DNA of 64,000 nt from an uncultured Actinomycetota bacterium. GTDB taxonomy: Bacteria > Actinomycetota > UBA4738 > HRBIN12. The translations under genes and the position numbers were made by a program. Within the stretch, counting starts at the first letter, position 1; the number at the start of each line of letters is the position of its first letter. The stretch lies in contig CAVVSH010000015.1 in the NCBI GenBank assembly GCA_963750945.1, positions 554,215-618,214 on the forward strand, given 5' to 3'. This document shows positions 7,072 to 64,000 of this stretch, piece after piece. The notes beneath the pieces were generated by a model. It was not told the origin of the DNA. It saw nothing but the letters and a program-made list of their open reading frames with translations, and made no database searches.

Positions 7072-7971
7072 GTGGCATCGGTGACCGAGGCGGCGGACGG
7101 CGGAGCCGTTCGCCGCCTCAGCGCCGCGCTCTACCGCCACCGCGCGGGGAGGCTCCTGCTCACGCTGGGGCCTCCCCTCGCGTGGATGGTCGTCATCTAC
7201 CTGGGCTCCCTGGCGCTGTTGCTCGCGTCGTCCCTCTGGCGCCTGGATGTGTTCACGACCAAGATCGTGCACGACTGGGGCTTCACCAACTTCCAGATCC
7301 TCTGGGAAGGCGAGGTCTACCGCAACATCGTCCTTCGGACGGTCGGGATCGCGGCGGCCGTCACCGTGACGGACATCGTCCTCGCGTTCCCGCTCGCCTA
7401 TTACGCCGCGCGACTCGCGACGCCCCGGATGCGCAACGCCCTGCTGATCGCCGTGGTGCTGCCTCTTTGGGCCAACTACCTCGTGCGGGTGTTCGCATGG
7501 CGGATCATCCTCACCCCCAACGGCTTCCTGAACTCGGTCGCCAACGCGATCGGACTGGGCTCGCTCCAGCTCGGCCGGTCCAACTGGGCGATCTGGCTCA
7601 CGTCGGTCTACCTGTGGCTGCCGTTCACGCTGCTGCCGATCTACGCGGCCCTCGAGCGGGTGCCGGCGTCGTTCCTCGAAGCGTCGGAGGATCTCGGCGC
7701 TCGTGGTTGGTTCACGTTCCGCCGTGTCGTGTTCCCGCTGATCCTGCCGGGCATCGTGGCGGGGTCGTTGTTCTCCTTCTCCCTCACGCTCGGCGACTAC
7801 ATCGTGCCGGAGCTCGTCGGGAACACGCAGTTCATCGGCAACGTGATCTACGACAACGTCGGGGTCGCGGGGAACACCCCGCTGGCCGCGGCGTTCGCGC
7901 TCGTGCCGATCGCGATCATGGCCGTCTATCTCACGCTCGCGAAGCGAGCGGGCGCGTTCGAGGCGCTGTAG
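7072..7971 (+). CDS. Polyamine ABC transporter permease (PotB-like)
   Basis: Six-TM BPD_transp_1 permease with the EAA-like loop (EASEDLGA). GTG 7072 follows AGGAG at 7064-7068. Confidence 0.8.
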   Translation: MASVTEAADGGAVRRLSAALYRHRAGRLLLTLGPPLAWMVVIYLGSLALLLASSLWRLDVFTTKIVHDWGFTNFQILWEGEVYRNIVLRTVGIAAAVTVTDIVLAFPLAYYAARLATPRMRNALLIAVVLPLWANYLVRVFAWRIILTPNGFLNSVANAIGLGSLQLGRSNWAIWLTSVYLWLPFTLLPIYAALERVPASFLEASEDLGARGWFTFRRVVFPLILPGIVAGSLFSFSLTLGDYIVPELVGNTQFIGNVIYDNVGVAGNTPLAAAFALVPIAIMAVYLTLAKRAGAFEAL

Positions 7972-7973
7972 CG

Positions 7974-8798
7974 ATGGAGTCGAGGGCGGCGCGCGTGCTG
8001 ATCAAGAGCGGGAGTGTGCTCACGCTCGTGTTCCTGTACGTGCCCCTCGCGATCGTGGCGATCTACGCGTTCAACGACAGCATCGGCCAGGCGTGGCCGA
8101 TCCAGGACTACACGACGAAGTGGTTCGGCATCGCGTTCCGGGAGGCGACGGTCCGCCAGGCGATGATCAACTCGCTGCAGATCGCGCTCTTCGCGACGGC
8201 GCTGGCATTGATCCTCGGCAGTGCCGCCGCGTTCGCCGTTCACCGCTTCGACTTCTTCGGCCGCAACACGGTGTCGTTCCTGCTGGTGCTCCCCATCGCC
8301 CTCCCGGGGATCGTGACCGCGATCTCGCTGCGCTCGGCGATCGAGACGTTCGGCGTGTCCTTCGGGGTGCTCACGATCGTGGTCGGCCACGCGACCTTCT
8401 GCATCGTGGTCGTCTACAACAACGTGTTGGCGCGCCTGCGGCGCACGCCGACCTCACTGGTGGAGGCGTCGATGGACCTCGGCGCGGACGGGTGGCAGAC
8501 GTTCCGCTACGTCACGTTCCCCGCGATCAGAACCGCGGTCCTCGCCGGCGGGTTGCTCTCGTTCGCGCTCTCCTTCGACGAGATCATCGTGACGAACTTC
8601 CTCGCGGGCAGCACCATCACGCTTCCGAAGTTCATCTACAACAGCATCCGGCTGCCCCGGAATCGCCCGGTGGTGAACGTGGTGGCGGTGGTGGTCGTCC
8701 TGCTGATGCTGATCCCGGTGTACATCGCGCAGCGGCTGGCGGGAGGCACCGACTCGCAGGTGGCCGCCGCCGGGTCGCGGGCGGGCGAGGACCCCTAG
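7974..8798 (+). CDS. Polyamine ABC transporter permease (PotC-like)
   Basis: Second BPD_transp_1 permease (EASMDLGA). ATG 7974 lies 2 nt after the potB stop. Confidence 0.8.
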   Translation: MESRAARVLIKSGSVLTLVFLYVPLAIVAIYAFNDSIGQAWPIQDYTTKWFGIAFREATVRQAMINSLQIALFATALALILGSAAAFAVHRFDFFGRNTVSFLLVLPIALPGIVTAISLRSAIETFGVSFGVLTIVVGHATFCIVVVYNNVLARLRRTPTSLVEASMDLGADGWQTFRYVTFPAIRTAVLAGGLLSFALSFDEIIVTNFLAGSTITLPKFIYNSIRLPRNRPVVNVVAVVVVLLMLIPVYIAQRLAGGTDSQVAAAGSRAGEDP

Positions 8799-9319
8799 AG
8801 GTACTGCCCCCGCGGCGGAGCACCCTGTTGCTCGGTCTGCTGGTCGGGGTTCTGCGCCATCAGGCCGCGCCGCCGGATCTCCTCGAACTGCTGTCGCGCC
8901 GCCATCTGCTGCGCGAACATCGCGGCCTGGATCCCATGGAACAACCCTTCCAGCCATCCCACCAGCTGCGCCTGCGCGACACGCATCTCGGATTCGCTTG
9001 GGACACCGTCGAGCGGCGGGACGAGCTCCTGAAGCTCGTCCTTCAGATCTTGGCTGACCGATTCGCCCAGCTCCTCGACGGACCGGTGGTAGATGTCCAC
9101 CAGCCGCTTGCGGCCGGCTTCGTCCATCGAGGCGTGGCGCGTCTCCTCCAGGAGCTCTCGGACCATCGACGCGATCCTGAGGAGCTTGGCCGGCTCGGTG
9201 ATGCTCTCCGCCGGCGGCGCGCCCTCGCCCTCGGTCCCCGGTTTCCCGGGCTCGGGCGGTACCTCGACGGGGACCGCGGGGATCGCCTGGACGGGGACAA
9301 CGTCCTCGGGGGTGCTCAC
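8795..9319 (-). CDS. bpa: Bacterial proteasome activator-like protein (Bpa/PafE family) with C-terminal GQYL
   Basis: The protein ends ...QGAPPRGQYL. A GQYL C-terminus is the 20S proteasome docking motif of mycobacterial Bpa. Helical central region of comparable length. Confidence 0.65.
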   Translation of the reverse strand: MSTPEDVVPVQAIPAVPVEVPPEPGKPGTEGEGAPPAESITEPAKLLRIASMVRELLEETRHASMDEAGRKRLVDIYHRSVEELGESVSQDLKDELQELVPPLDGVPSESEMRVAQAQLVGWLEGLFHGIQAAMFAQQMAARQQFEEIRRRGLMAQNPDQQTEQQGAPPRGQYL

Positions 9320-10704
9320 GCCTCCAAGGTAGCAGCCGGCTCGCCGGTTCCCTCGCCGAGGGTTCGGAGGAAGAGCGCCTCGGCGAGCGCGATGTGCTCG
9401 ATCTCGGACAGGTCGACGCTCTCGTTCACGGAATGGATGAACGAGCGTTCGTCCATCGCGCCCCAGATCAGGATCTCCATGCCAGGGAACGTCTCGGTGA
9501 GCATCGGGACCAGAGGGATCGATCCTCCCGAGCCCACCTCGATCGGGTCGCGCCCGTACGCCCGCGCGAGAGCGTCCATCGCCGCGCGGCTCGCGGGCGT
9601 CGACGTGTCGACCAGGTAGCCGTGTCCTGCTTCGAAACCGGACGCTCCCTCGAACGTCACCTCCACGCCCCAGGGGGCGTGGGCCCGGAGATGGTCCACG
9701 AGCGCCTCGCGTGCCGCGCCGGGATCGTCACCCGGCGCGAGCCGGAGGCTCACGCGGGCGCGAGCGACCGGCACGATCTGATTCGACGAGCCGGCGATCG
9801 CCGGCGCGTCGACGCCCAGCACGGCGACGGCGGGGGAGGACAGCAGACGGTCCGCGATCGTGCCCGACCCGATCAGCTCCACCGAGTCGAGGACACCCGA
9901 CTCATCGCGGAACTCGTCTTCGGGCAGCTGCGCGCCCTCCCACTCGAACCGCTTCAGACCTTCGATCGCGACGTCGCCCTCGTCCGTGTGCAGCGAGGCG
10001 ATCATCCGCGCGAGCGCCGTGATCGCATCCGGGATCGGTCCTCCGTACGCCCCCGAGTGCTGGGCACTCGGGAGGACGCGGACCTGCACCACGATGTCGG
10101 TCACCCCTCGGATCGAGGTGTTCATCGTCGGGACGCCGGTCCGGTAGTTGCCGCCGTCGGCGATCACGGCGACGTGCGCCCGCAGCAGATCGGCGTGGCC
10201 TTGGACGAGGTCGGGCAGATGCTCGGTCGAGCACTCCTCCTCGCCTTCGACGACGACCTTGATCGTCACCGGAGGTTCGCCGTCGGCGAGCAGGGCGCGG
10301 ATCGCCGCCGCGTGGACGACGATGCCGCTCTTGTCGTCCGCGGCCCCGCGCCCGTACATGCGTCCGTCATTCACCACCGGCTCGAACGGAGGCGTGTCCC
10401 ACTGGTCGACCGGACCCTCGGGCTGCACGTCGTGATGCGCGTAGAGCAGGACCGTCGCCGCGCCGTCGGGTCCGCGGATCTCACCGAAGACCGCCGGGTG
10501 TCCACCGTCCAGCTCCAGCAGGCGGGCGTCCTCCACGCCGGCCTCCCGCAGGATGTCTCTGGTCGTCTCGGCCGAGGCCCGGACATCGGCCGGGTCGTAG
10601 CCCGGGTAGCCCATCGACGGGATTCGTACGAGCCGCTCGAGCTCCGCGATCGTGCGCGGCATGTCGGCCGCGATCCGTTCGCGGAGTGTCTCGTCCTCGC
10701 TCAT
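9316..10704 (-). CDS. M20 family dipeptidase/peptidase
   Basis: M20 metal-ligand motifs (HHDVQP, GRGAADDKSG, EGEEE) plus a dimerisation domain. Confidence 0.8.
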   Translation of the reverse strand: MSEDETLRERIAADMPRTIAELERLVRIPSMGYPGYDPADVRASAETTRDILREAGVEDARLLELDGGHPAVFGEIRGPDGAATVLLYAHHDVQPEGPVDQWDTPPFEPVVNDGRMYGRGAADDKSGIVVHAAAIRALLADGEPPVTIKVVVEGEEECSTEHLPDLVQGHADLLRAHVAVIADGGNYRTGVPTMNTSIRGVTDIVVQVRVLPSAQHSGAYGGPIPDAITALARMIASLHTDEGDVAIEGLKRFEWEGAQLPEDEFRDESGVLDSVELIGSGTIADRLLSSPAVAVLGVDAPAIAGSSNQIVPVARARVSLRLAPGDDPGAAREALVDHLRAHAPWGVEVTFEGASGFEAGHGYLVDTSTPASRAAMDALARAYGRDPIEVGSGGSIPLVPMLTETFPGMEILIWGAMDERSFIHSVNESVDLSEIEHIALAEALFLRTLGEGTGEPAATLEA

Positions 10705-50014: not shown

Positions 50015-50161
50015 GGCCAGTTGCAAGGCGTTGCAAGAACAGGGTAGGCCTGCCTGCATGGCAGTGCGACACGCCGTCGCTCGGCCCTCCTGCCTGCCCT
50101 GCTCCTCGACGGAGGCGCCTGCTCGACGAGCTCGCCCGCCGACGAGTCTCTCGTCCAGGTC

Positions 50162-51051
50162 GTGACGACCGTCTCTCCGATCACCAACATCGTGCAGAAC
50201 GTGGGCGGCGACCGCGTCTCCGTCTCGGGGATCGTGCCGGAGGGAACGAACAGCCACACGTTCGAGCCTGCCCCCGCGGACGCTGCGCTGATGGAGGAGG
50301 CCGAGATCGTCTTCATCAACGGGCTCCACCTCGAGGAGCCCACGCGGGAGCTCGCGGAGGCGAACGTGGGCGAGGAGGTGCCGATCGTCCAGCTCGCCGA
50401 TCGGACGATCTCCGAGGACGAGTACATCTTCGACTTCTCGTTCCCTGAGTCCGAGGGTTTCCCGAACCCCCACCTCTGGACGAATCCTCCCTACGCGAAG
50501 GAGTACGCCGAGATCGTGAAGGCCGAGCTCTCGAAGCTGGATCCTGAGGGGGCGTCGACCTACCAGGAGAACCTCGACGCGTTCGCCCGGCGCCTCGACG
50601 GCCTCGATCAGGCCGTCCGGACCGCGACGGCGACCGTCCCCGAGGAAGACCGGAGGTTGCTCACCTACCACGACTCGTTCCCCTACTTCGCCCGCGAATA
50701 CGGTTGGGAGGTGGTGGGAGCGATCCAGCCGTCGGACTTCGCCGAGCCCACCCCGCAGGAGGTGGCGGGATTGATCGAGCAGATCCGAACGGAAGACCTC
50801 CCCGCGATCTTCGGCTCGGAAGTGTTCCCCAGTCCGGTGCACGAGCAGATCGCGGCGAGACCGGGACGACATACGTGGATGATCTCCGAGACCACGACCT
50901 GCCGGGCGAGGCGGGCGACCCCGACCACAGCTACCTCGGGCTGATGGTGTTCGACTTCACGACGATCGTGGACGCGCTCGGTGGCGACGGCTCGGCCTTC
51001 CAGGGCATCGACGTCGCCAACCTCTCGACCGGCGGCGGGGCTCGATACTGA
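50162..51051 (+). pseudogene. znuA: Metal (Zn/Mn) ABC transporter substrate-binding protein ZnuA/TroA family. Interrupted by a -1 frameshift near 50851, and no canonical start codon precedes the signal peptide.
   Basis: Frame 2 reads ...EQIAAR and then nonsense. The conserved C-terminus (TYVDDLRDHDLPG...LMVFDFTTIVDALGG) continues in frame 1 (track ORF 50704..51051). gcggcgagacc looks like gcggcgGagacc minus one g. The upstream in-frame peptide RRRSALLPALLLDGGAC looks like a lipoprotein signal but has only a CTG start. Confidence 0.65.
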
Positions 51052-51859
51052 TGGAAGATCTCGTCCGCCTCGAGCGGGTCACGTGTCGGTACGGCAGGGA
51101 CCCCGTCCTGGTGAACGTGGATCTCGAGATCGGAGCAGGTGAGTTCGTCGGGATCGTCGGCCCGTCGGGCAGCGGCAAGAGCACCTCCTGAAGGCGATCG
51201 CCGGGTCCGTCGAGCCCATCGCCGGCCGGATCGAACGCGCCTCCGATCTCTCGATCGGCTACGTCCCGCAGGTCGAGACGGTGAACTGGTTCTTCCCGGT
51301 GACCGTGCGCGAGGCGATCCTCATGGCTCGGGTCGACGGTCGGCGGCTGCCCTGGCCGTCGAAGCAGGAGGTCGCGGAAGCAGAGGAGGTGCTCGAGCGG
51401 CTGGACCTCGCGGGCCTCGCGAACCGGCACATCCGGGAGCTCTCGGGCGGGCAACAGCAGCGGGTCTTCATCGCGCGCGCGATGCTCGGGCGACCACGGC
51501 TGCTCCTCCTGGATGAGCCCACCAGCGGGATCGACGTCCGAACCCGTCACGACGTGATGCACGTGATCCACGACTTGCATCACGAGGGCCTCGCGATCGT
51601 GCTGACGACGCACGACCTGAACGGGATCGCGTCGCACCTGCCGCGGCTCGTGTGCCTGAACCGCGAGGTCATCGCGACGGGCTCGCCGCGTCAGGTGATC
51701 ACCAGCGAGGTTCTCGAGAAGACCTACGGCGCGCCACTCGAAGTGCTCTCGCACGGCGGGATGCCGGTGGTGCTCGAGCAGTACCCCGAGCTCCTCGACG
51801 ACCGAGACGGCGCGAAGGTGCTGCCGCTCCGGGAGGACCACCATGAACACCCTGCTTGA
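51051..51859 (+). pseudogene. znuC: Metal ABC transporter ATP-binding protein ZnuC, with a -1 frameshift inside Walker A
   Basis: From ATG 51051: ...GPSGSGKSTS*. The other frame then reads LLKAIAG...VNWFF and joins track ORF 51281..51859 (LSGGQQQR, LLLLDEP, TTHDL). agcacctcctg looks like agcacCctcctg minus one c. Confidence 0.7.
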
Positions 51860-52683
51860 GCCCTTCAGCTACGAGTTCTTCCAGCGGGCGCTCATCGTCG
51901 CCACGATCACCGGCGCTCTCTGCGGGCTGATCGGCGTCTACGTCGTCCTGCGAGGGATGAGCTACATCGGTCACGGCCTGTCGCACGCGATCTTCGGAGG
52001 TGCGGTGGCGAGCTACATCGTGGGTGTCAACGTCTTCCTTGGTGCCGGGCTCTGGGGATTGGTCTCCGCGCTGTTCATCAACAAGGTCGCTCGCCGACGT
52101 TCGATCGGCGCCGATGCAGCGATCGGCGCGATCACGTCGGCGAGCATCGCCATCGGCATCATCCTGATCTCGACGCAGCGGACGTTCATCGTGAACTTCG
52201 AAGCCCTGCTGTGGGGCAACGTGCTGGGCGTCGCCCCCGCCGACGTGCTCGTCGTGCTCGGCGTCGCGATCGCGTCGACGATCTTCGTCTTCTTCGGCTA
52301 CCGCCAGCTGCTGTTCTCGACGTTCGATCCCGAGGTGGCCGAGGTCTCCGGCGTGCGGACCGCTCGCGTCGACGTCGGGCTGGCGGTGATGCTCACCGCC
52401 ACGATCGCCGCGACCATGACCGTGAACGGGTGACGATGATCGCGGCGATGCTCGTGATCCCGCCGGTCATCGGACGCCTCCTCACCGACTCGTTCAGCGG
52501 ATACTGTGGATCTCGGTCGGCGCCGGCACGCTGTGCGGGTTCGTGGGCGTCTACGGTTCGTACTACTTGAACTGGTCCTCGGGCGGCACCGTCGTCCTGG
52601 CCGCCGGAGTCCTGTTCGTCGTGGCCTTCGTGTTCAGCGGCTGGCGGCGCAAGCTCCCTGCACTCGGCGCCGGGGCGCACTGA
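51843..52683 (+). pseudogene. znuB: Metal ABC transporter permease ZnuB, with two -1 frameshifts
   Basis: ABC-3 permease is continuous across three frames (51843..52433, then VTMIAAMLVIPPVIGRLLTDSF, then ILWISVGAGTLCGFVGVY...AH* ending 52683). Single-base losses are inferred at gggtgacg (about 52430) and ttcagcgg (about 52497). Confidence 0.65.
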
Positions 52684-54099: not shown

Positions 54100-54981
54100 A
54101 TGACGGTGATGGTGACCGGCGCGTCGGGACTCCTCGGGCGGGCGATCGTGGAGGCTCTGGTCCAACGCGACGAGGTGCGGGCGACCGTCCGGCGCCCCGA
54201 GGCGGGCGAGGCACTCCGCCGGCTGGGCGCGAAGGTGGCGGTGCTCCCGATCGAGGAGCCGGACGAGCTGATCGAGATCCTCCCTCGCGTGCACACGATC
54301 GTGCATCTGGTCGGGGGCGTGAACCAGCCGAGCGACGCAGAGATCTTCGCCGCCAACCACCGCTCGACGCTCGCCGCCGTCGCGGCGGCGAAGGAGGGTG
54401 GGGTTCGCCGGCTGATCCTGCTGTCCGTCCCCGGTGCCGCGGTCGACCACCCGCATCCGTTCCTCCGAGCGAAGGGACTCGCGGAGGAGGTGGTCGTCCA
54501 GAGCGGGCTCGAACACGCGGTGCTCCGGTCCTCCCATGCCTACGGGCTGGGCGGCTTGTGGTTCGCTTCGACGGTGATGGGTGCGGAACACGGCTTCGTC
54601 GTGGGCGACGGGAAACAGCGTGTCGCACCGGTGCTCGCCGAGGACGTGGCGAAGGTGGTCGCGGCGATCGACGATCTACGCGAACCGATCGAGGGCATCT
54701 GGAGGCTCCGCGGTCCGGATGAGCTCACCGCGGACGAGGTGTTCGACCTCGTGGGGGAGGGCGGCGAGCCGACCCACCTCGACCCGCCATCGGGGGCCGA
54801 ACGATTGTCGACCCTCCTCGAGATCCCCGTGTCGGTCCGCGCCACCGAATCCTTCGCCGGGTTGTCGACGGCCGATGCCCTCGAAGCCGCCGCGCCCGAT
54901 GCCGCCGCTGCCTTCGACGTGTCGACCACGCCGTTCGACGATGGCCTCCGAGCGATCGCCGCGAAGGCGGGCGAGGACTAG
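54100..54981 (+). CDS. NAD(P)-binding SDR/NmrA-like oxidoreductase
   Basis: N-terminal VTGASGLLGRA Rossmann motif, atypical SDR/NmrA layout. Confidence 0.75.
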   Translation: MTVMVTGASGLLGRAIVEALVQRDEVRATVRRPEAGEALRRLGAKVAVLPIEEPDELIEILPRVHTIVHLVGGVNQPSDAEIFAANHRSTLAAVAAAKEGGVRRLILLSVPGAAVDHPHPFLRAKGLAEEVVVQSGLEHAVLRSSHAYGLGGLWFASTVMGAEHGFVVGDGKQRVAPVLAEDVAKVVAAIDDLREPIEGIWRLRGPDELTADEVFDLVGEGGEPTHLDPPSGAERLSTLLEIPVSVRATESFAGLSTADALEAAAPDAAAAFDVSTTPFDDGLRAIAAKAGED

Positions 54982-55060
54982 GGATGTCTCCAAGGATGGA
55001 CTTAAGCTCTGCCGGTAGGTCGCGACGGCGACCGCCACCACAGGAGGAGCGAGCGGATCG

Positions 55061-55513
55061 ATGGACCAGCCAACGGCGGAGCACGCGCTCCGAGAGCTCG
55101 AGCCTCTGGTCGGCGAGTGGACCATGGAGGCGAAGTGGCCCGACGGAGAGCAGTGGCAAGGCGGGGGAAGGGTCACCTTCGAGTGGCACGCCTCGGGGGC
55201 ACATCTGGTCGAACACGGGACGGTCGAGCTTCCCGAAGCGCCGGACAACATCTCGATCATCGGATGTGACGCGGCCAACGGCAGGTACTTCCAGTTGTAC
55301 TCCGACGATCGTGGCGTCTGCCGCGTCTACGAGATGAGCATCGGCAACGGCGAGTGGAAGCTCTGGCGGGAGGGCGAGCCGTTCGCCCAGCGCTTCACCG
55401 CGACGTTCAGCGACGACGGGAACACGATCACCGGACGCTGGGAGATCGCCGAGGACGGCGCCGACTACACGACCGACTTCGACCTCATCTACCGCAGGGT
55501 GCGCGATGCCTGA
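55061..55513 (+). CDS. Hypothetical protein (DUF1579-like beta-barrel)
   Basis: 150 aa. Tentative similarity of the LVGEWT...ITGRWEI pattern to DUF1579. Confidence 0.4.
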   Translation: MDQPTAEHALRELEPLVGEWTMEAKWPDGEQWQGGGRVTFEWHASGAHLVEHGTVELPEAPDNISIIGCDAANGRYFQLYSDDRGVCRVYEMSIGNGEWKLWREGEPFAQRFTATFSDDGNTITGRWEIAEDGADYTTDFDLIYRRVRDA

Positions 55514-56279
55514 GCTCGTGCACCTCGAGGTGGACGACGGCGTCGGGATCATCCGCCTGGATCGTCCACCGGCGAACGCGATCTCGTTGCAGCTGTCGAT
55601 CGAGCTGTTGGCCGCGCTCGAGGAGGCGGGATCACGTGACGACGTCGGCGCGCTGGTCGTGTGGGGAGGCCCGAAGCTCTTCGCCGCGGGCGCGGACATC
55701 AAGGAGATGGTCGACCACGGGCCCGACGAGATCCGCAACCAGGTGACGCAGCTCGGTGACGCCTGCGATCTCCTGGAGGCGACGCCCAAGGTCTCGATCG
55801 CGGCGATCACCGGGTTCGCTTTGGGCGGCGGGTTCGAGCTCTCGCTCGCGTGCGACCTCCGCTACGCGGCCGACGACGCCACGGTCGGGCAGCCCGAGGT
55901 GCGGATCGGCGTGATCCCCGGCGCGGGCGGTTCGCAACGGATGACCTGGCTCGCGGGTGCCGGGGTGTCGAGGGATCTCAGCTACACGGGCCGGCAGGTG
56001 GACGCCGAGGAGGCGAAGGCGCTCAAGCTGGTCGAGCGGGTGCTGCCCGCGGACCGGGTCTTCGAGACCGCGGTGCAGGATGCACGGGTGTTCGCGCACG
56101 GGCCCAGGCGCGCCCTCGCGGCGGCCAAGGAGGCCATCAACGCGGCCGTGAGGACCCCCGGTCCCGCGAGTATCGCGAGGGAGAAGGAGCTCTTCATCGC
56201 GCTGTTCGGGGGCGATGACCAGCGAGAAGGCATGCGGGCGTTCATCGAGAAGCGGCCTCCGGAGTTCCTGGGCAGCTGA
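55506..56279 (+). CDS. Enoyl-CoA hydratase/isomerase (crotonase family)
   Basis: Crotonase oxyanion motifs (FAAGADIKEM and GGGFELSLACD). Confidence 0.85.
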   Translation: MPELVHLEVDDGVGIIRLDRPPANAISLQLSIELLAALEEAGSRDDVGALVVWGGPKLFAAGADIKEMVDHGPDEIRNQVTQLGDACDLLEATPKVSIAAITGFALGGGFELSLACDLRYAADDATVGQPEVRIGVIPGAGGSQRMTWLAGAGVSRDLSYTGRQVDAEEAKALKLVERVLPADRVFETAVQDARVFAHGPRRALAAAKEAINAAVRTPGPASIAREKELFIALFGGDDQREGMRAFIEKRPPEFLGS

Positions 56280-56429
56280 GACCTCCCGCCCGGGTCTGTG
56301 GCGTCTTCGTGACGACTCCGACCGGGCTGAAACCGAGGAATGAACCGGTCCCTCACATCGTTCGAATCACACGACGAGGAAGGACGCCCGATCCGTCCTC
56401 AGCTGAGACGACGAAGGGAAGTGAACGAG

Positions 56430-56639
56430 ATGGCGGAGGAGAGTTTCCGGGGCCAATCGGTCCGGTCGCTCCCGAGGGCCAACAAGCGCTATCAGGCCGA
56501 TCGCAGCTGTGCGGCCCCCGGGTGTAACACGAAGCTTTCGATCTATAACAAGTGGGATTACTGCTGGCAGCACGAACCGGTCCACACCTACATCGCGCGC
56601 GGCAAGCGACGCAGCCGCAAGGAGATGGAAGCCGCGTAA
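56430..56639 (+). CDS. Small hypothetical zinc-binding protein (69 aa)
   Basis: ATG 56430 preceded by GAAGGGAAG. Contains CAAPGC...CWQH, a C-x4-C...C-x2-H arrangement. Lies in a region of lower GC. Confidence 0.4.
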   Translation: MAEESFRGQSVRSLPRANKRYQADRSCAAPGCNTKLSIYNKWDYCWQHEPVHTYIARGKRRSRKEMEAA

Positions 56640-56696: not shown

Positions 56697-57283
56697 TCAG
56701 TCACGGTCGGTCAGGTCACGACCTCGGGTGACAGTCGTCGCCTCGCCTGGACTGATCGTCTGCTGGAAGAAGTACGTTTGCGTTCGCTCCGTTGAAGACC
56801 GCCGCCCGAAGCGCGGTGCCGGACTTCCAGGGCCTCCAGTGCCCGGGCCGATCGGGTACTGCACCCCGAATCGCAGGTCGTGGGAGAGGCGTTTTCGCCA
56901 CCTCACCGTGAAGGAGTTCGTGGACGGCGCCGCCAGCGCTCTCGGGAGCACCTTGATCGGGGCATGCCATTGCCCGAGGACGACGGCGGAGAGGTAGGTC
57001 CCGGCCCCGAGGATCCGTCTTTCCCTCTCCTCGCCGGGATCCAGGGTCACGGTCCAGAACCCGTCACGTTGGTACACGGTTTGGGTGCCGGTGCACGCGT
57101 TGTCTATCGTGATGGTCTCGCCGAGAAGGTGGACCGCGTCGGGCTGGACATGGAGGCGGCAGCTGAGATCGAACTGGGTGAGCGCCTGCAGGATCGTCCG
57201 CGGCTCGGGACGCGGAACGCCTGCCGATGCCGATCCGCGCCGGCCACGAGAGCGATCGCGATCCCGAGGGCAACTCTCTTCAT
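56697..57283 (-). pseudogene. Small secreted protein of about 190 aa with a frameshift between the signal peptide and the mature region. It uses codons that are unusual for this genome.
   Basis: Minus-strand ATG at 57281-57283 gives MKRVALGIAIALVAGA (signal peptide) and then runs out of frame. The long ORF (track 56697..57602) continues in another frame as ...HLLGETITIDNACTGTQTVYQRDGFWTV.... Rare codons (ata, aga, aaa, caa) are seen. Confidence 0.35.
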
Positions 57284-57440
57284 CAAGGTTGACGATCTTT
57301 CGGCGCAGGTTGCGGAGGATAGGGCGTTCTTGGGCAGGTCTGCCTGATTCAAGGTAGGCGATCTTCCCGCCGATGCAGGCAGGAGACCGCTCCCCCCGAG
57401 CGCGATGCCGATGCCGAATGAAACAGAGCAACCTCCCGCG

Positions 57441-57581
57441 ATGCGAGAAGGCGATTGCCCGTACTGCGAGCGGACCGTGCTCGTGTACGAGGAGCCGCCT
57501 CGCTGCCCGCTCTGTGACTGCCCCCTGGAAGAGCACGGCATGCGCCCGTTCTCCTTCCCCGTCGAGCCGGAGCGCGACTAG
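57441..57581 (+). CDS. Small Cys4 zinc-ribbon protein (46 aa; absent from the ORF track)
   Basis: MREGDCPYCERTVLVYEEPPRCPLCDCPLEEHGMRPFSFPVEPERD* has two CxxC pairs 18 aa apart and very high GC3. No obvious SD. A possible upstream ATG at 57405 has poor codon usage. Confidence 0.4.
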   Translation: MREGDCPYCERTVLVYEEPPRCPLCDCPLEEHGMRPFSFPVEPERD

Positions 57582-59347
57582 ACGAGGTCCGCGCGGCGCC
57601 ATCCTCGCGTGTCGCTGATCAGTGCGAGCTCCTCCGAGGACCGCAGGTCTTCGATCGTGACCGGCGCCTCGACCAACGCCCCTTCTTCCAGCGCCACCGC
57701 GCGCCCGATCCCCGGCAGAAGCCCCGACCCGATCGGTGGTGTCACCCAGCGCCCATCCGTCCGTACCGCCACGTTCGCGATCGTCGACTCGGTCACCTCG
57801 CCCCGGTCGTTCACGAGGACGACGTCGTCGGCGTCGGGATGGCGGCGGCGTGCCTCCTCGTATCGCTCGCGCCGTGAGGTCTTGTGGAACAGGAACACGT
57901 CGCGGGGATCCTGCGGCACGTCATCGAGCGCGACGCGCACCACATCCGGGTCGCTCGCGAGCGGCGTGCACACCACCCTCGCTGTTCCGTCCTTCGTGAG
58001 GGCGAAGCGGACCCGGCACGGCGTGGCCGGCGCGGACGCCACGGCCTTCTCCACCGCCTCACGCACCTCGGTCTCGTCGTACCGGAAACCGAAGTAGTCG
58101 GCCGACTCCGACAGGCGCCGGAGGTGCCGGTCCAGGTGACGCGTGCCATCCGCGGCGTCGTGACGCATGGTCTCCAGGAGCTCGAAGCCGGGACGACGCG
58201 CGGTCAGGACGCGGGTCTTCGCGACCGCCTCCTCGTATTCGGCCTCGGCGTCGGAGTCCCACGTGATGCCACCGCCCACGCCGTACTCCGCCGTTCCCGA
58301 GGCGGTGTCGACGGTCACGGTACGGATCGCGACGTTGAAGCGAGCGCGCGGATGCCCGGATCCATCCGGCGCGAGGTAGCCGACCGCGCCGCAGTAGATG
58401 CCTCGCGGGGAGTCCTCGAGCTCGCTGATGATCTGCATCGTCCGGACCTTCGGCGCGCCGGTGACCGATCCGCTCGGGAAGAGCCCCCGGAACACGCCCG
58501 CCACCCCGACGCCGCTCTCGAGCTCGGAAGACACCGTGGTGGTGAGCTGCCAGACGGTCTCGTAGCGCTCGGCCTGGAAGACGTCCGCCCACGTGACCGA
58601 GCCGGTCCGGCTGATCCGGCCGAGGTCGTTCCGCAGCAGGTCCACGATCATCGCGTTCTCCGCACGATCCTTCGCCGAGGCGAGGAGACGCTCCGCGACG
58701 GCGCGATCCTCCTCGGGCCATCTTCCACGCGGCGCCGTGCCCTTCATGGGCTTGGTGACGATCGCGCCGTCGCGGAGCTCGAAGAAGAGCTCGGGCGACG
58801 CCGACAGGATGCGATAGCGCCCGAGATCCAGATACGCGGAGAACGCGCCGCGCTGTGCGTAGCAGAGGTCGCGATAGAGCCCGCGCGGGTCGCCCTCCAC
58901 CCGGGAGCGCAGGCGCATCGTGTGGTTCACCTGATACGTCTCGCCGGCCGCGATCAGCTCCCGGATCCGGTCGACGGAGGACTCGTATCGGTCGCGAGGC
59001 GTCGTCGGGATCCAGGTCCCCTCGGCGGCCGCGCCGACGCCGTCGTCCCGGGGGAGCGGCAAGGTGGTCTCCTCGGCGCGCTCGAACATCGCGAACCACG
59101 CCAAGGGGAGGGCGGCGAACGGGTCGTCGAGGGCGCGGGCGCGAACGACGAGGTCGGGGTCGAGGCCCGGCGCGGCTTCGTAGGCGACGAACCCCGCGAC
59201 CCATAGCCCGCGACCGGTCGCCGCCTCGGCGGCTTCGATCGTGCCGACGACCTCACCGGCGCGCGTCGCCTCCAGCACCCCGACCGGTTCCACGAGCCGG
59301 AACGACGGCGAGGCACCGGTGAGGTCGTCGAATCGGGCTTCCAGCAT
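57578..59347 (-). CDS. pabB: Aminodeoxychorismate synthase component I fused to aminodeoxychorismate lyase (PabB-PabC fusion)
   Basis: Chorismate-binding domain (SPELFF...GAPK...GIYCGAVGY) followed by a class-IV aminotransferase-like domain. 589 aa. Confidence 0.8.
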   Translation of the reverse strand: MLEARFDDLTGASPSFRLVEPVGVLEATRAGEVVGTIEAAEAATGRGLWVAGFVAYEAAPGLDPDLVVRARALDDPFAALPLAWFAMFERAEETTLPLPRDDGVGAAAEGTWIPTTPRDRYESSVDRIRELIAAGETYQVNHTMRLRSRVEGDPRGLYRDLCYAQRGAFSAYLDLGRYRILSASPELFFELRDGAIVTKPMKGTAPRGRWPEEDRAVAERLLASAKDRAENAMIVDLLRNDLGRISRTGSVTWADVFQAERYETVWQLTTTVSSELESGVGVAGVFRGLFPSGSVTGAPKVRTMQIISELEDSPRGIYCGAVGYLAPDGSGHPRARFNVAIRTVTVDTASGTAEYGVGGGITWDSDAEAEYEEAVAKTRVLTARRPGFELLETMRHDAADGTRHLDRHLRRLSESADYFGFRYDETEVREAVEKAVASAPATPCRVRFALTKDGTARVVCTPLASDPDVVRVALDDVPQDPRDVFLFHKTSRRERYEEARRRHPDADDVVLVNDRGEVTESTIANVAVRTDGRWVTPPIGSGLLPGIGRAVALEEGALVEAPVTIEDLRSSEELALISDTRGWRRADLV

Positions 59348-59433
59348 CGATCGTCACGATACGGCCCCGGCGGTCTGGAGGGGACCGTCGATTAGGCTCG
59401 ATCCCCTGAAAGGCGGGTGAACCCTTCGGAGCG

Positions 59434-62400
59434 ATGATCTGTTCGAACTGCGGTGTCGAGAACGAGCACGGAAGGAAGTTCTGCGGCAGTTGCGGCAGCG
59501 CCTTGTCGGTGGTCTGCGGCGTGTGCGCCACTCCAACTCCCGCGGAACGAAGTTCTGTGGCGATGTGGGTCGTCGCTCGCGACGAACCGGCGGCGGAAGT
59601 CGTCAGGGACATGCCCGCAGCCGAGCGTCGGCTGTATCCGTGCTGTTCGCGGATCTCGTCGGCTTCACGACGATCTCGGAATCGCGAGACCCCGAAGAGG
59701 TCCGTGAGCTGCTCACGGGCTACTTCGACACCTGCCGGCGCCTGATCGATCGATACGGAGGGACGGTCGAGAAGTTCATCGGCGACGCCGTCATGGCGGT
59801 GTGGGGGGCGCCGGTGGCGAAGGAGGACGACGCCGAGCGCGCGGTCCGCGCGGCGCTCGAGCTCACCGCCGCGGTCGCGAACCTCGGTGAGGACGCGGGA
59901 GCGGCCGACCTGCGCGCGCGGGCCGGGGTGCTCACCGGTGAGGCCGCGGTCACGCTCGGCGCCGAGGGACAGGGCATGGTCGCCGGCGATCTAGGTGAAC
60001 ACCGCCTCGCGCATCCAGGCGACGGCGAAGCCGGGTGGAGGTGTTCGTCGGCGATGCGACCAAGCGGGCGAGCGATGCTGCGATCGCGTACGAGGACGCC
60101 GGTTCTCACGAGCTCAAGGGGAAGGCGGAGCCGATGCAGCTCTGGCGCGCCGTGCGGGTGGTCGGGCTCGGAGAGGCGTGGCCACCTCCTCTGCACTCGA
60201 GCCGCCGTTCGTCGGCCGCGATCGCGAGCTCCGCCTCGTGAAGGAGCTGTATCACGCTACCGCCGACGAGCATCGGACACAACCTCGTCTCGGTGATCGG
60301 CGTCGGCGGGATCGGCAAGTCCCGCCTGGCATGGGAGTTCGAGAAGTACTTCGACGGCCTCGCCGACGACGCGTGGTGGCATCGAGGGCGCTGCCTCGCG
60401 TACGGGGACGGAGTCGCGTTCTGGGCGCTCGCCGAGATGGTGCGAGGGCGGGCCGGGATCGTGGAGGACGAGGACTCCGTCTCCGCGTCGGCGAAGCTCC
60501 GGGCGATCGTGGACGACATCGTGCCCGATCCGAACGAACGGCGGTTCGTCGAGCCGAGGCTCGCACAGCTCCTCGGGCTCGAGGACCGGCCGCCGGGAGA
60601 CGAGGCGAACCTCTTCGCCGCATGGCGGCTCTTCTTCGAGCGGATGTCGGACACCGACCCCGTGATCATGCTGTTCGAGGACATCCACTGGGCCGACAGC
60701 GCACTGCTAGAACTTCATCGAGCACATGCTCGACTGGTCCCGGGAGCGGCCGATCTTCATCCTGACGCTTTCCCGGCCCGAGCTACTGGACCGTCGACCC
60801 ACGTGGGGAGCGAGCAAGCGTGGGTTCACCTCGATCTTCCTCGAGCCGCTGCCAGACGGAGGCGATGGAATCGTTGTTGGCCGGACCGCTCCCAGGACTT
60901 CCCGTTGACGTCCTCGAGAAGATCCTGCAGCGGGCCGAGGGTGTTCCCTTCTATGCGGTGGAGACGGTACGGATGCTGCTCGACCGGGGCCTGATCGTCC
61001 GGGAGGGGAACGTCTACCGGGCGACCGGACCGATCGAGACGCTGAGGTCCCGGAGACGCTGCAGGCGCTGATCGCCGCGAGACTCGACGGCCTCGCGACC
61101 GACGAGCGGTGGCTCCTTCAGCGCGCCTCGGTGCTCGGGAAGTCCTTCACGCTTCAGGGGCTGGCAGCCGTGACGGACATCGAGGAGGCGCAGCTCGAGC
61201 CCACGCTGTCCTCGCTCGTACACAAGGAGGTCCTGGGGGTCACGACCGATCCGATGTCGCCCGAGCGAGGCCAGTACGGGTTCCTGCAGGACCTCGTGAA
61301 GAAGGTGGCGTACGACACGATGTCACGACGGGAGCGCAAGGCTGGGCATCTCGCGGCCGCCTCGTACCTCCTCGGTGCCGTGGACGAGGACGAGATCGTC
61401 GAGGTGGTGGCGGCCCACTACCTGGACGCCTACAAGGCTGAGCCCAACGCCGACGACTCGAGCGTGATCCGGACGAAGGCGCGGGACATGCTGATCCGGG
61501 CCGCCGAGCGAGCCGCCTCGCTGGGCGCCAACGCCGAGGCGCAGCGTTCGTTCGAGCACGCGACGGAGCTTGGAGACGACAGGCTGGAACAGGCCGGGCT
61601 CCTGGAACGTGCAGGGCGTATGGCGCGCGCCGGCGGACGGGCGGATGAGGCCACCGCCCACTACGAACGATCGATCTCGCTGTTCGAGGCCGAGGGTGCG
61701 ACACACCCGGCAGCCCGCGTGTCCGCCCGTCTGGCGGAGATCATGTGGGACCGGGGGCGGCTCGGCGACGGCGTCCGGCGGATGGAGCGCTCGTTCGCGG
61801 TGCTCTCGGAGGAGGAGCCCGACAGCGACCTGGCGGCGGTCGCGGCGACGCTCGCGCGGCTGCTGTTCTTCTCCGGGCAGGCGGCCGCGGCCGCGGAGCG
61901 CGTCGAGGTGGCGCTGGAGATCGCCGAAGCACTCGGGCTCCCGGAGGTCTTGTCCCAGGCCCTGAACACGAAGAGCCTCGTCCTGCTCGCGCGCGGGCGA
62001 CAGCGCGAGGCGCTCGCACTCTTGCGGTACGCCCTGGACGTCGCGCTGGACCACGAGATCCCGACGGCTGCGCTCCGCGCGTACTACAACCTCACCGACG
62101 CCGCGATCCAGGTCGATTCGTACCGTGAGGCGACCGAGCGGATCCAGTCGGGGCTGGCGCTGGCTCGCCGGGTCGGCCATCGCGACTGGGAGTGGCAGTT
62201 CGTCGGCCAGATGTACCCGCAGGTCGCGCTGGGCGAATGGGACGACGTGCTCGAAACCGCCGAAGCGTTGCCCCACGACGTGATCGACGACAACCGCATC
62301 GCGTACAACGGGTTCCTGTGCACCATCCCCTCGATCCGCGTCCACCGAGGGGAGCTCGACGGAGGCGAAGACCAGCCACGCGATCTTCGCCGACGCGGAG

Positions 62401-62968
62401 ACGTCCGACGACATGCAGGAGCGAGCGACCGCGGCGGCGGGGGCGGCGATCATCGCCCTGCGCGGAGGGGCGGCAAGAGGATGCCTTGCGCGACGCGCAG
62501 CAGGCGCTCGAGGCACGGAGTGAGCTCGGCATCGGCCACGAGGCGATGAAGGACGCGTTCGTGGAGGGGGTCGAGGCCGCCATCGCTCTGGACAAGCTCG
62601 AGGAAGCCGAGGAGATCCTGTCGATCGTGGCGGCGATCCCGCCCGGCCGACAGAGCCCGTACCTCGATGCGCACACCCTGCTGCTGCCGAGGCGGAAGCC
62701 GTCAGGGCGACGCGAGCCGGTGGAGTCCGGATACAAGAGCGCGGTCGGCATGTTCCGCGAGCTGGAGACGCCGTTCTGGCTGGCGGTCGCTCTCCTCGAG
62801 TTCGCGGAGTGGCTAGTGAACGAGGGTCGGAAGGACGACGCGAAACCGCTCCTGGATGAGGCTCGCGAGTGTTCGAGCGTTGCGAGCAAGACCCTGGCTG
62901 GAAAGGGTCGAAGCAGTCGCGATAGACTGTGCCACATCGGCTGAGATGGGTCGAGAAGTCGCTGTTAG
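59434..62968 (+). pseudogene. Large multidomain regulator: double zinc ribbon, class III adenylyl/guanylyl cyclase domain, AAA/STAND ATPase and TPR repeats. Fragmented by eight or more frameshifts.
   Basis: Recognisable blocks lie in successive frames. MICSNCGVENEHGRKFCGSCG is in frame 1. NSRGTKFCGD...VLFADLVGFTTISE...KFIGDAVMAVWGAP is the cyclase domain in frame 3. VNTASRIQATAKPG, EVFVGDATKRAS, PPFVGRDRELRL, IGVGGIGKSRLAWEF and ...HWADSALLELH follow, then the TPR region (61131..62549 and 62192..62944), ending ARPWLERVEAVAID* at 62968. The junctions inspected look like single-base losses in G/C runs. Confidence 0.65.
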
Positions 62969-62977
62969 CCTCGTCGC

Positions 62978-64000
62978 ATGCCTTCGGTGCTGGTCGCGAT
63001 GTCGGGAGGCGTCGACTCCTCGGTCGCCGCGTGCCTCCTGCACGAGCAGGGTTTCGACGTGCTCGGGTCCCATATGCGCTTGGTTCACCTCGACGGCGTC
63101 GATCACGGGTGCTGCGGACCGAGCGCGAGGCGGGATGCCGCCGAGACCGCCCGCATCGTCGGGATCCCCTTCGAGATCTGCGACCTCACGGACGCGTTCG
63201 AGCGGACGGTGCTCGCGGACTTCGCATCGGAGCACGAGGCCGGGCGCACGCCCAACCCTTGCGCTCGGTGCAACGGCGAGATCAAGTTCGGAGCGTTCCT
63301 GCGTCGAGCCGACGAGCTCGGGATCGACATGGTGGCGAGCGGGCACTACGTGAGGAAGGCCGGCGACGACGCGAGCGGTTGGCGGCTGCTGCGTGGGCTC
63401 GATCCCGCGAAGGACCAGTCGTACATGCTCCACATGCTCGGACAGGGAGCGCTCGCCCGGTCACTGTTCCCGGTGGGAGAGATCCCCAAGACGGAGACCC
63501 GCGCGCTCGCCGAGCGGTTCGGTCTCCCGGTCGCGACCAAGCCCGACTCGCAGGAGCTCTGCTTCGCCCCGTCGGGCGATGCCGGCGCGTACGCGCGCGC
63601 CAACCTCCCGCACCTCGTGCGCGAGGGCGATGTCGTCGACCCGGGCGGCGCCGTCATCGGACATCACGAGGGAGCGTTCGGGTTCACGATCGGACAGCGC
63701 CGGGGGACGGGCGTCGCAACGGGTGAACGACGGTACGTCGTCGACGTCGAACCCCGTGCGAACACGGTCGTCCTCGGGCCGGTCGAGCTGCTCGACCGCC
63801 GGGGGCTCGTCGCCGACCGGTTTTCGTGGATCGCGGGCGAGCCGCCTGGCGGCGGACCGTTCGAGGCAGGCGTCCGGATCCGCTACCGGGGCGACGACGT
63901 GCCGTGCGTGGTGGAGCCTCTCGACGACGCACGGGTCCGCATCGAGTTCCGGTCGCCTCAACGCGCGGTGGCGCCGGGCCAGAGCGCCGTCCTGTATCGC
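62978..64000 (+). CDS. mnmA: tRNA-specific 2-thiouridylase MnmA (5' portion; continues past the window end)
   Basis: PP-loop VAMSGGVDSSVAA, a catalytic Cys context (CARCNGEIKF), and the DQSY region. It has no stop in the window and so is absent from the ORF track. Confidence 0.85.
   Translation, partial: MPSVLVAMSGGVDSSVAACLLHEQGFDVLGSHMRLVHLDGVDHGCCGPSARRDAAETARIVGIPFEICDLTDAFERTVLADFASEHEAGRTPNPCARCNGEIKFGAFLRRADELGIDMVASGHYVRKAGDDASGWRLLRGLDPAKDQSYMLHMLGQGALARSLFPVGEIPKTETRALAERFGLPVATKPDSQELCFAPSGDAGAYARANLPHLVREGDVVDPGGAVIGHHEGAFGFTIGQRRGTGVATGERRYVVDVEPRANTVVLGPVELLDRRGLVADRFSWIAGEPPGGGPFEAGVRIRYRGDDVPCVVEPLDDARVRIEFRSPQRAVAPGQSAVLYR

Follow-up and report, generated by a model that had tools for sequence, protein, structure and literature searches.

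A large gene at positions 59434-62944 of the 64,000-nucleotide (nt) stretch of DNA analysed here (contig CAVVSH010000015.1 of an uncultured Actinomycetota bacterium; hereafter the window) is interrupted by 18 small insertions and deletions (indels). Judged from sequence comparison, these are most likely artefacts of consensus calling or assembly, and the gene would then be normal and functional in the organism. We favor this verdict because three lines of evidence agree, namely the pattern of substitutions, the way in which the indels are distributed by size and context, and the association of broken gene copies with sequencing technology. The original prediction had set a decaying cyclic nucleotide regulator against an artefact that hides an intact protein; these were the right alternatives, and the test proposed to separate them was a valid one. 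The flagged feature, a regulator in decay, is most likely not real.

Pieces of a single large protein are spread over the three forward-strand frames across the gene, in a window whose G+C content is about 69% throughout. Pfam searches with the separate fragments recovered DZR (a double zinc ribbon), the N-terminal half of Guanylate_cyc, AAA_16 and TPR_12/MalT-TPR, with their order kept. When insertions were taken out and deletions padded, a frame-corrected protein of 1172 amino acids (aa) without in-frame stops was obtained. The expectation of one zinc ribbon, cyclase, AAA (STAND) and TPR gene of about 1170 aa, its domains laid out in order over alternating frames, is thus borne out. A scan of species-representative genomes yielded 41 related loci, with relatives no more than 94% identical. 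The closest are L003, from the Microflora Danica (MFD) metagenome-assembled genome (MAG) MFD09206.bin.2.176, L004, from another MFD MAG, and L005, from a short-read MAG. Their orthologues (L003 4384-7902, L004 4384-7902, L005 4375-7902) are uninterrupted open reading frames (ORFs) of 1172-1175 codons in the same PabB-gene-MnmA context, and the corrected protein is 91.6% identical to that of L003. Nucleotide alignment with L003, L004, L005, L031 and L001 revealed 18 frame-breaking indels private to the window (5.1 per kb), consisting of ten 1-nt deletions, one 5-nt deletion and seven 1-nt insertions. Fragmentation by "eight or more" frameshifts was therefore correctly perceived but undercounted, with about half of the events seen earlier.

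Substitutions in the gene do not resemble those of a decaying sequence. After polarizing window-L003 differences with the remaining relatives, we counted 77 synonymous and 28 non-synonymous codon changes on the window branch and 76 and 25, respectively, on the L003 branch. The Nei-Gojobori ratio of non-synonymous to synonymous divergence (dN/dS) is 0.109 between window and L003 and likewise 0.109 between L003 and L004. Values of dN to L004 (0.0807 for the window, 0.0794 for L003) and to L005 (0.1425 and 0.1400) translate, by our own estimate, into a surplus of about 3-7 non-synonymous changes on the window branch. No nonsense substitution was found on that branch. In bacterial mutation-accumulation data, indels occur at roughly one tenth the frequency of substitutions. 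At this rate, 18 indels acquired by drift imply that about 100 or more neutral substitutions, mostly non-synonymous, should have accompanied them, and these are not seen. Private substitutions of window and L003 number 120:115 in the gene, 41:56 in PabB and 27:43 in MnmA. An excess in branch length, considered as a sign of noise or decay, was rejected; the excess is mostly synonymous and therefore reflects differences in rate or history. The catalytic and nucleotide-binding motifs are all intact in the corrected ORF, including the four Cys pairs of the zinc ribbons, the metal-binding Asp motifs FADLVGFT and IGDAV, the Lys of EKFIGD, the Asn and Arg of VNTASR, and Walker A and B. Raised dN/dS, a longer branch, nonsense changes and degraded motifs, the hallmarks of a pseudogene, are thus absent from the window copy. 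Both checks put forward in the original prediction, inspection of motifs in the corrected ORF and comparison with orthologues, come out on the side of artefact, the latter through a window-branch dN/dS equal to that of the intact sister.

The indels themselves are also unlike those of natural decay. Natural 1-nt indels arise by slippage and concentrate in homopolymers, and natural pseudogenes also gather larger deletions. In the window, 17 of 18 events are exactly 1 nt and none is a larger deletion, only about 1-2 fall in runs of at least three identical bases, and seven lie within 3 nt of a private substitution, against 19% expected. It is this combination that sets the spectrum apart from decay. 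The proposal that single-base losses in G/C runs are the signature of the gene holds for the two junctions on which it was based (59530 and 59633), where single losses did occur, and fails as a generality, with seven of 18 events being insertions and most lying outside runs. Insertions are rich in A/T and deletions in G/C, a bias compatible with either model.

Proximity to private substitutions raises the possibility of a particular kind of artefact, the collapse of two or more co-assembled strain haplotypes with bases dropped or doubled where strains differ. This variant is conceivable, although we regard it as a minority option. In addition to the seven indels adjoining private substitutions, every deletion can be assigned to a third codon position and five of the insertions to the site immediately before one, and microdiversity is a stated problem for MAG recovery from soil in the Microflora Danica MAG paper (PMC12313526). 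However, the codon-position enrichment is not significant given placement ambiguity, and preferential location of indels at third codon positions or polymorphic sites, pursued as a sign of haplotype merging, was not established when equally good placements were enumerated. Moreover, the five inserted A's imply minor alleles ending in A (CTA, GGA, ACA, CCA), which are unlikely because a genome of 69% GC should have a very GC-rich third codon position. As to base composition, five of the seven insertions can be read as an extra A directly before the base at the third codon position (59993, 60036, 60279, 60709 and 60854, in the contexts CT[A]G, GG[A]G, AC[A]C, CT[A]G and CC[A]G, respectively), and nine of ten single deletions removed C or G. 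The extra-A bias has no counterpart in L001 and L031, whose insertions are mostly C/G.

A third line of evidence comes from assemblies of known origin. The MFD MAGs were assembled with metaFlye from Nanopore reads alone and polished once with Medaka, and inspection by their authors noted signs of Nanopore-associated error (reduced coding density) in some MAGs of lower coverage (PMC12313526). Two of the Nanopore relatives, L001 and L031, carry indels that are mostly 1 nt and outside homopolymers, in kb-scale patches that disregard the limits of genes and disrupt PabB, MnmA and LigA too, essential genes thus being affected. Patchiness is pronounced in L001, where indels are dense over 57675-60106, drop to one event over 60106-62889 and are dense again thereafter. 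Within the gene family, primary copies are frame-broken at 11 of 22 long-read loci versus 0 of 12 short-read loci (one-sided Fisher test, about 0.0025 by our own calculation). Thus, indels of the type and patchiness seen in known Nanopore relatives are absent from short-read assemblies, as anticipated for long-read error patches. The window likely belongs to an assembly of long reads in which 59.4-62.9 kb was covered thinly or by mixed reads; long-read origin is inferred because its closest relatives are MFD Nanopore MAGs and because at least 64 kb are contiguous in a lineage represented by MAGs only. L001 (ENA ERZ25039532 contig_45799) is heavily frameshifted across the whole locus, with PabB split, LigA distributed over at least three frames and FolD shortened to a call of 91 aa. 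Insertions make up 87% of its private indels, which occur in kb-scale patches.

Collectively, these data are best accommodated if the indels are consensus errors within some 3.6 kb where read support was locally weak, the source most likely being a metagenome assembled from long reads of the Nanopore type. Structurally variable segments in a mixed soil population would attract fewer or conflicting reads, and with few reads or mixed strains over such a strain-variable locus, 1-nt indels like those of raw reads could survive polishing. Circumstantial backing for a locus-specific loss of read support is provided by relatives, among which both noisy loci of the window, the gene under study and the znuACB operon, vary structurally. 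L002 lacks the equivalent of window 59965-60377 and 61942-62958 in the cyclase-STAND-TPR gene, and L001 lacks znuACB altogether.

Several observations weigh against an artefact and are those to which a genuine, very recent pseudogene would owe its credibility. All 18 private indels found in coding regions lie inside the cyclase-STAND-TPR gene, a clustering that greatly exceeds chance (0.497^18, or about 3e-6 by our own calculation on these counts). None occurs in PabB (57578-59347), the MnmA part (62978-64000) or the enoyl-CoA hydratase gene (55506-56279), and the first 50 kb showed no junction suggestive of a frameshift in a census of frames based on GC content at third codon positions. Indels that halt at gene borders are what gene-specific relaxation of selection predicts, and damage bounded in this way means that the artefact model needs a drop of read support specific to the locus. 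Elsewhere in the window, frameshifts affect only znuACB, in which four lie at about 50852, 51159-51187, 52429 and 52495, and this is the operon wholly missing from L001. The gene may be dispensable, since a related population (L002) has two large deletions in it. Window-private replacements at columns at least 90% conserved among 20 intact family members number five, versus one for L003; these odd replacements are mostly G:C to A:T, with several beside indels, a bias again compatible with either model. Natural AT-biased mutation could likewise produce the A/T-rich insertions and G/C-rich deletions. Finally, the related mycobacterial mclx family offers documented cases of real pseudogenes caused by indels, having been hit by frameshift indels in strains of the M. 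tuberculosis complex (PMC4452763).

Despite these points, we consider it improbable that selection was lifted from the regulator and znuACB and that small indels then accumulated only in dispensable genes. Eighteen indels alongside so few surplus non-synonymous substitutions and an unchanged dN/dS, their nearly uniform size, their location outside homopolymer runs, the lack of a nonsense substitution, and the occurrence of the same indel type in noisy Nanopore relatives all speak against it. Less probable still, and in our estimate quite unlikely, is that the indels are real and that an uncultured soil actinobacterium very recently silenced this gene and znuACB, both dispensable, through a strongly indel-biased process. 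That process would have to insert AT and delete GC outside homopolymer runs with almost no substitutions. If true, such a mutational spectrum would be unlike any reported from bacterial mutation-accumulation studies. Expression of the broken frames by programmed ribosomal frameshifting or other recoding has nothing in its favor beyond the presence of frameshifts. It would call for 18 shifts of both signs with no slippery sites, two insertions create an in-frame TAG, and orthologues are plain ORFs, so we regard recoding as effectively refuted.

Assembly or consensus error thus remains the preferred explanation for the events, all given here on the + strand, which extend from 96 nt past the start to 9 nt short of the stop codon. 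Four 1-nt deletions cluster near the start, following 59530 (a run of four to five C's in relatives), 59562 (GAA to GA), 59582 and 59633 (CTC/CTG to CT). An inserted A at 59993 makes a TAG in the region of the GDLVNTASR motif, and a further 1-nt insertion at 60036-60039 is ambiguous in position inside GGTGGAGG. Next come a 1-nt deletion after 60168 (CTCC to CTC) and A insertions at 60279, 60709 and 60854, of which the second makes a TAG and adjoins the private change D427N. The following events are a 1-nt deletion after 61043, an inserted C/G at 62360-62361 and an inserted T at 62459. The 5-nt deletion after 62687 and the 1-nt deletion after 62712, whose exact placement is uncertain, are jointly in frame and leave about eight codons between them out of frame. 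The last three 1-nt deletions lie after 62869, 62879 and 62935. The gene is not flanked by repeats or by the ends of mobile elements, and Rfam searches detected no RNA family in window 50-64 kb.

Once corrected, the gene reads on the + strand from an ATG at 59434 through 1172 codons to a TGA at 62942-62944, earlier than the end at 62968 first proposed. The double zinc ribbon (59440-59569; Pfam DZR PF12773, aa 3-46, E=6.7e-8 on the corrected protein) has the form CSNC...CGSC and CGVC...CGxC and spans the deletions after 59530 and 59562. A second ribbon ending in FCGDVG had been taken as possibly degenerate; this was a wrong-frame reading that arose because the 1-nt deletion after 59562 was missed. 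Correction restores FCGxCG, and all relatives have FCGECG. The class III nucleotidyl cyclase catalytic domain occupies 59626-60136 (PF00211, aa 66-235, 83.3 bits versus a gathering cut-off of 21.9), with motifs FADLVGFT (59646-59669), EKFIGDAV (59769-59792) and VNTASR (59995-60012) intact once the frame is corrected. Assignment to the cyclases is supported by this score together with the pair of metal-binding Asp residues, the transition-state Asn and Arg, and the Lys predicted to recognize substrate. The AAA_16/STAND NTPase domain covers 60205-60761 (PF13191, aa 259-443, 73.8 bits versus a cut-off of 32.6) and has both Walker A (GVGGIGKS, 60299-60322; consensus GxxxxGK[ST]) and Walker B (MLFEDIHWAD, 60668-60697; consensus hhhhD/E) intact, which places it in that class. 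TPR or MalT-like helical repeats lie at 61572-62265, including a TPR_12 match (PF13424, aa 764-833, 61722-61931) and a below-threshold TPR_MalT match to residues 175-405 of the fragment at 61050-62390. The C-terminal helical region extends up to the stop codon.

Related contigs share a conserved gene context of Fur, enoyl-CoA hydratase, PabB (minus strand), the cyclase-STAND-TPR gene, MnmA, LigA, FolD and GatCAB. The immediate neighbors in the window are PabB (57578-59347, - strand) and MnmA (from about 62978, + strand). L002 (ENA ERZ25039547 contig_29435, 7427-9530) is a relative of 82-88% identity, with the two orthologue blocks absent and neighbors such as LigA intact; the missing blocks may reflect a genuine deletion allele or a pseudogene or, alternatively, a collapse during assembly. 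The znuACB zinc-uptake operon lies at window 50083-52680 (+ strand). There, the Pfam match of ZnuA breaks off at about 50852, having reached profile position 225 of 263; ZnuC is interrupted at about 51159-51187, and 1-nt deletions at 52429 and 52495 split ZnuB.

Structural polymorphism is also evident outside these genes. Between PabB and the enoyl-CoA hydratase gene lies a segment of about 640 nt (56698-57339) that all aligned relatives lack, and L003 has 34 nt there. The frame model labels this stretch non-coding, and no Pfam match was obtained for a 301-aa minus-strand ORF at 56697-57602 or for small ORFs at 56340-56639 and 57405-57581. A second segment of about 535 nt (54967-55502), containing a 148-aa ORF at 55060-55506, is aligned across its length by L003 only. 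At this site, L004, L001, L031, L005 and L002 have about 10-40 nt, which constitutes a small structural polymorphism.

Protein searches with the gene product returned solely metagenomic Actinomycetota proteins, the closest 81-90% identical. The family is widespread in soil Actinomycetota MAGs, often as several paralogues or tandem copies. Tandem head-to-tail pairs of paralogues occur in L008 (881-7875), L016 (1430-7869), L023 (4378-10235), L030 (2321-9358) and L011, and several paralogues per MAG are found, for example L003 and L020, L004 and L036, and L005 and L029. Among the 240 protein-database matches listed, the longest reach no more than 833 aa, versus about 1175 aa for intact orthologues; these lengths were not used as evidence. 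One match (P0089) combines the zinc ribbon, half a cyclase domain and TPR and lacks the ATPase, and another (P0145) has glycine-cleavage T-protein domains fused to a zinc ribbon-cyclase-AAA part. Both look like gene calls made across frameshifts or deletions in other assemblies.

These findings matter chiefly for quality control. At a locus that most likely encodes an intact 1172-aa protein, automated gene calling would yield at least nine fragments or else a pseudogene, with the risk that loss of cyclic AMP (cAMP) signaling or a degenerate zinc ribbon is wrongly concluded. MAG-type contigs that are otherwise clean can carry kb-scale patches with about 0.5% indel error. Such patches can be recognized without reads by equal dN/dS between lineages after correction, by the size and context spectrum of indels, and by the association of broken copies with technology. 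In addition, the analysis draws attention to a double zinc ribbon-class III cyclase-STAND ATPase-TPR family that is widespread in soil Actinomycetota and uncharacterized.

From its predicted domains, the product is a soluble multidomain signaling protein that joins a double zinc ribbon, a class III cyclase, a STAND-type (AAA_16) NTPase and a long TPR array. The best solved relative of the cyclase domain is the guanylyl cyclase Cya2 (2w01, E=1.5e-24). A Lys of the window protein (in EKFIGD) aligns with the specificity-determining Glu of Cya2, which suggests ATP as the substrate. Class III cyclases are active only as dimers, and STAND proteins such as MalT and AfsR undergo ligand-released, nucleotide-dependent oligomerization. 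On the strength of these two properties, a most likely mechanism can be proposed by analogy. The C-terminal TPR array may sense a ligand or partner and keep the NTPase closed. Ligand binding would free the AAA_16/STAND module to bind nucleotide and oligomerize, and oligomerization would bring the N-terminal cyclase domains together to switch on synthesis of a cyclic nucleotide (probably cAMP). The double zinc ribbon could serve as an accessory interaction module.

Comparison with known systems places the protein within a familiar theme but outside the named families. Compared by architecture, the nearest named relatives are the Mclx proteins (Rv0386/Mclx1, Rv1358 and Rv2488c), which combine a class III cyclase with an AAA/NB-ARC ATPase and a C-terminal LuxR helix-turn-helix (HTH) domain (PMC4452763). 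In the window protein, as in these, a class III cyclase homology domain lies in the N-terminal part and precedes a STAND-type ATPase. In contrast, the window protein has a TPR-only C-terminus, as searching the corrected 1172-aa sequence at E<=0.01 gave no match to GerE/LuxR, and carries an additional N-terminal double zinc ribbon. It is not an Mclx member because of these two differences, and the label "mycobacterial-type" originally applied to it does not suit a protein of this build. Its gene also resides in the conserved PabB-gene-MnmA-LigA context of uncultured soil Actinomycetota.

The TOMM kinase/cyclase fusion family (TIGR03903) aligns over a long stretch, with aa 64-896 of the window protein matching profile positions 283-1120 of 1267 (E=2.3e-62). 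The score of 211.3 bits nonetheless falls well below the cut-off of 705.75 and leaves the protein outside that family. The kinase part (profile positions 1-282) is unmatched, its place being taken by the zinc ribbon, and no TOMM genes are among the neighbors. PADLOC reported matches to PycC of the anti-phage Pycsar systems, which are cCMP/cUMP cyclases (best E=7.8e-19), and otherwise nothing; the similarity, however, extends only to the shared class III cyclase fold. A gene for a cyclic nucleotide-sensing effector, as expected of Pycsar, is not adjacent, the neighbors being PabB and MnmA in the window and in syntenic loci. Unlike a mobile defense island, the locus is syntenic across several species.

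In MalT and AfsR, as in the window protein, a long TPR/MalT-like helical sensor comes after an AAA_16-type NTPase, with weak TPR_MalT and AfsR TPR matches. Ligand-released, nucleotide-dependent oligomerization is likely to be common to them as well, as far as analogy allows. The output differs, being a cyclase rather than a DNA-binding domain in the window protein, and all matches are below the family cut-offs. Overall, the gene is an ordinary, uncharacterized member of the known cyclase-STAND architectural theme.

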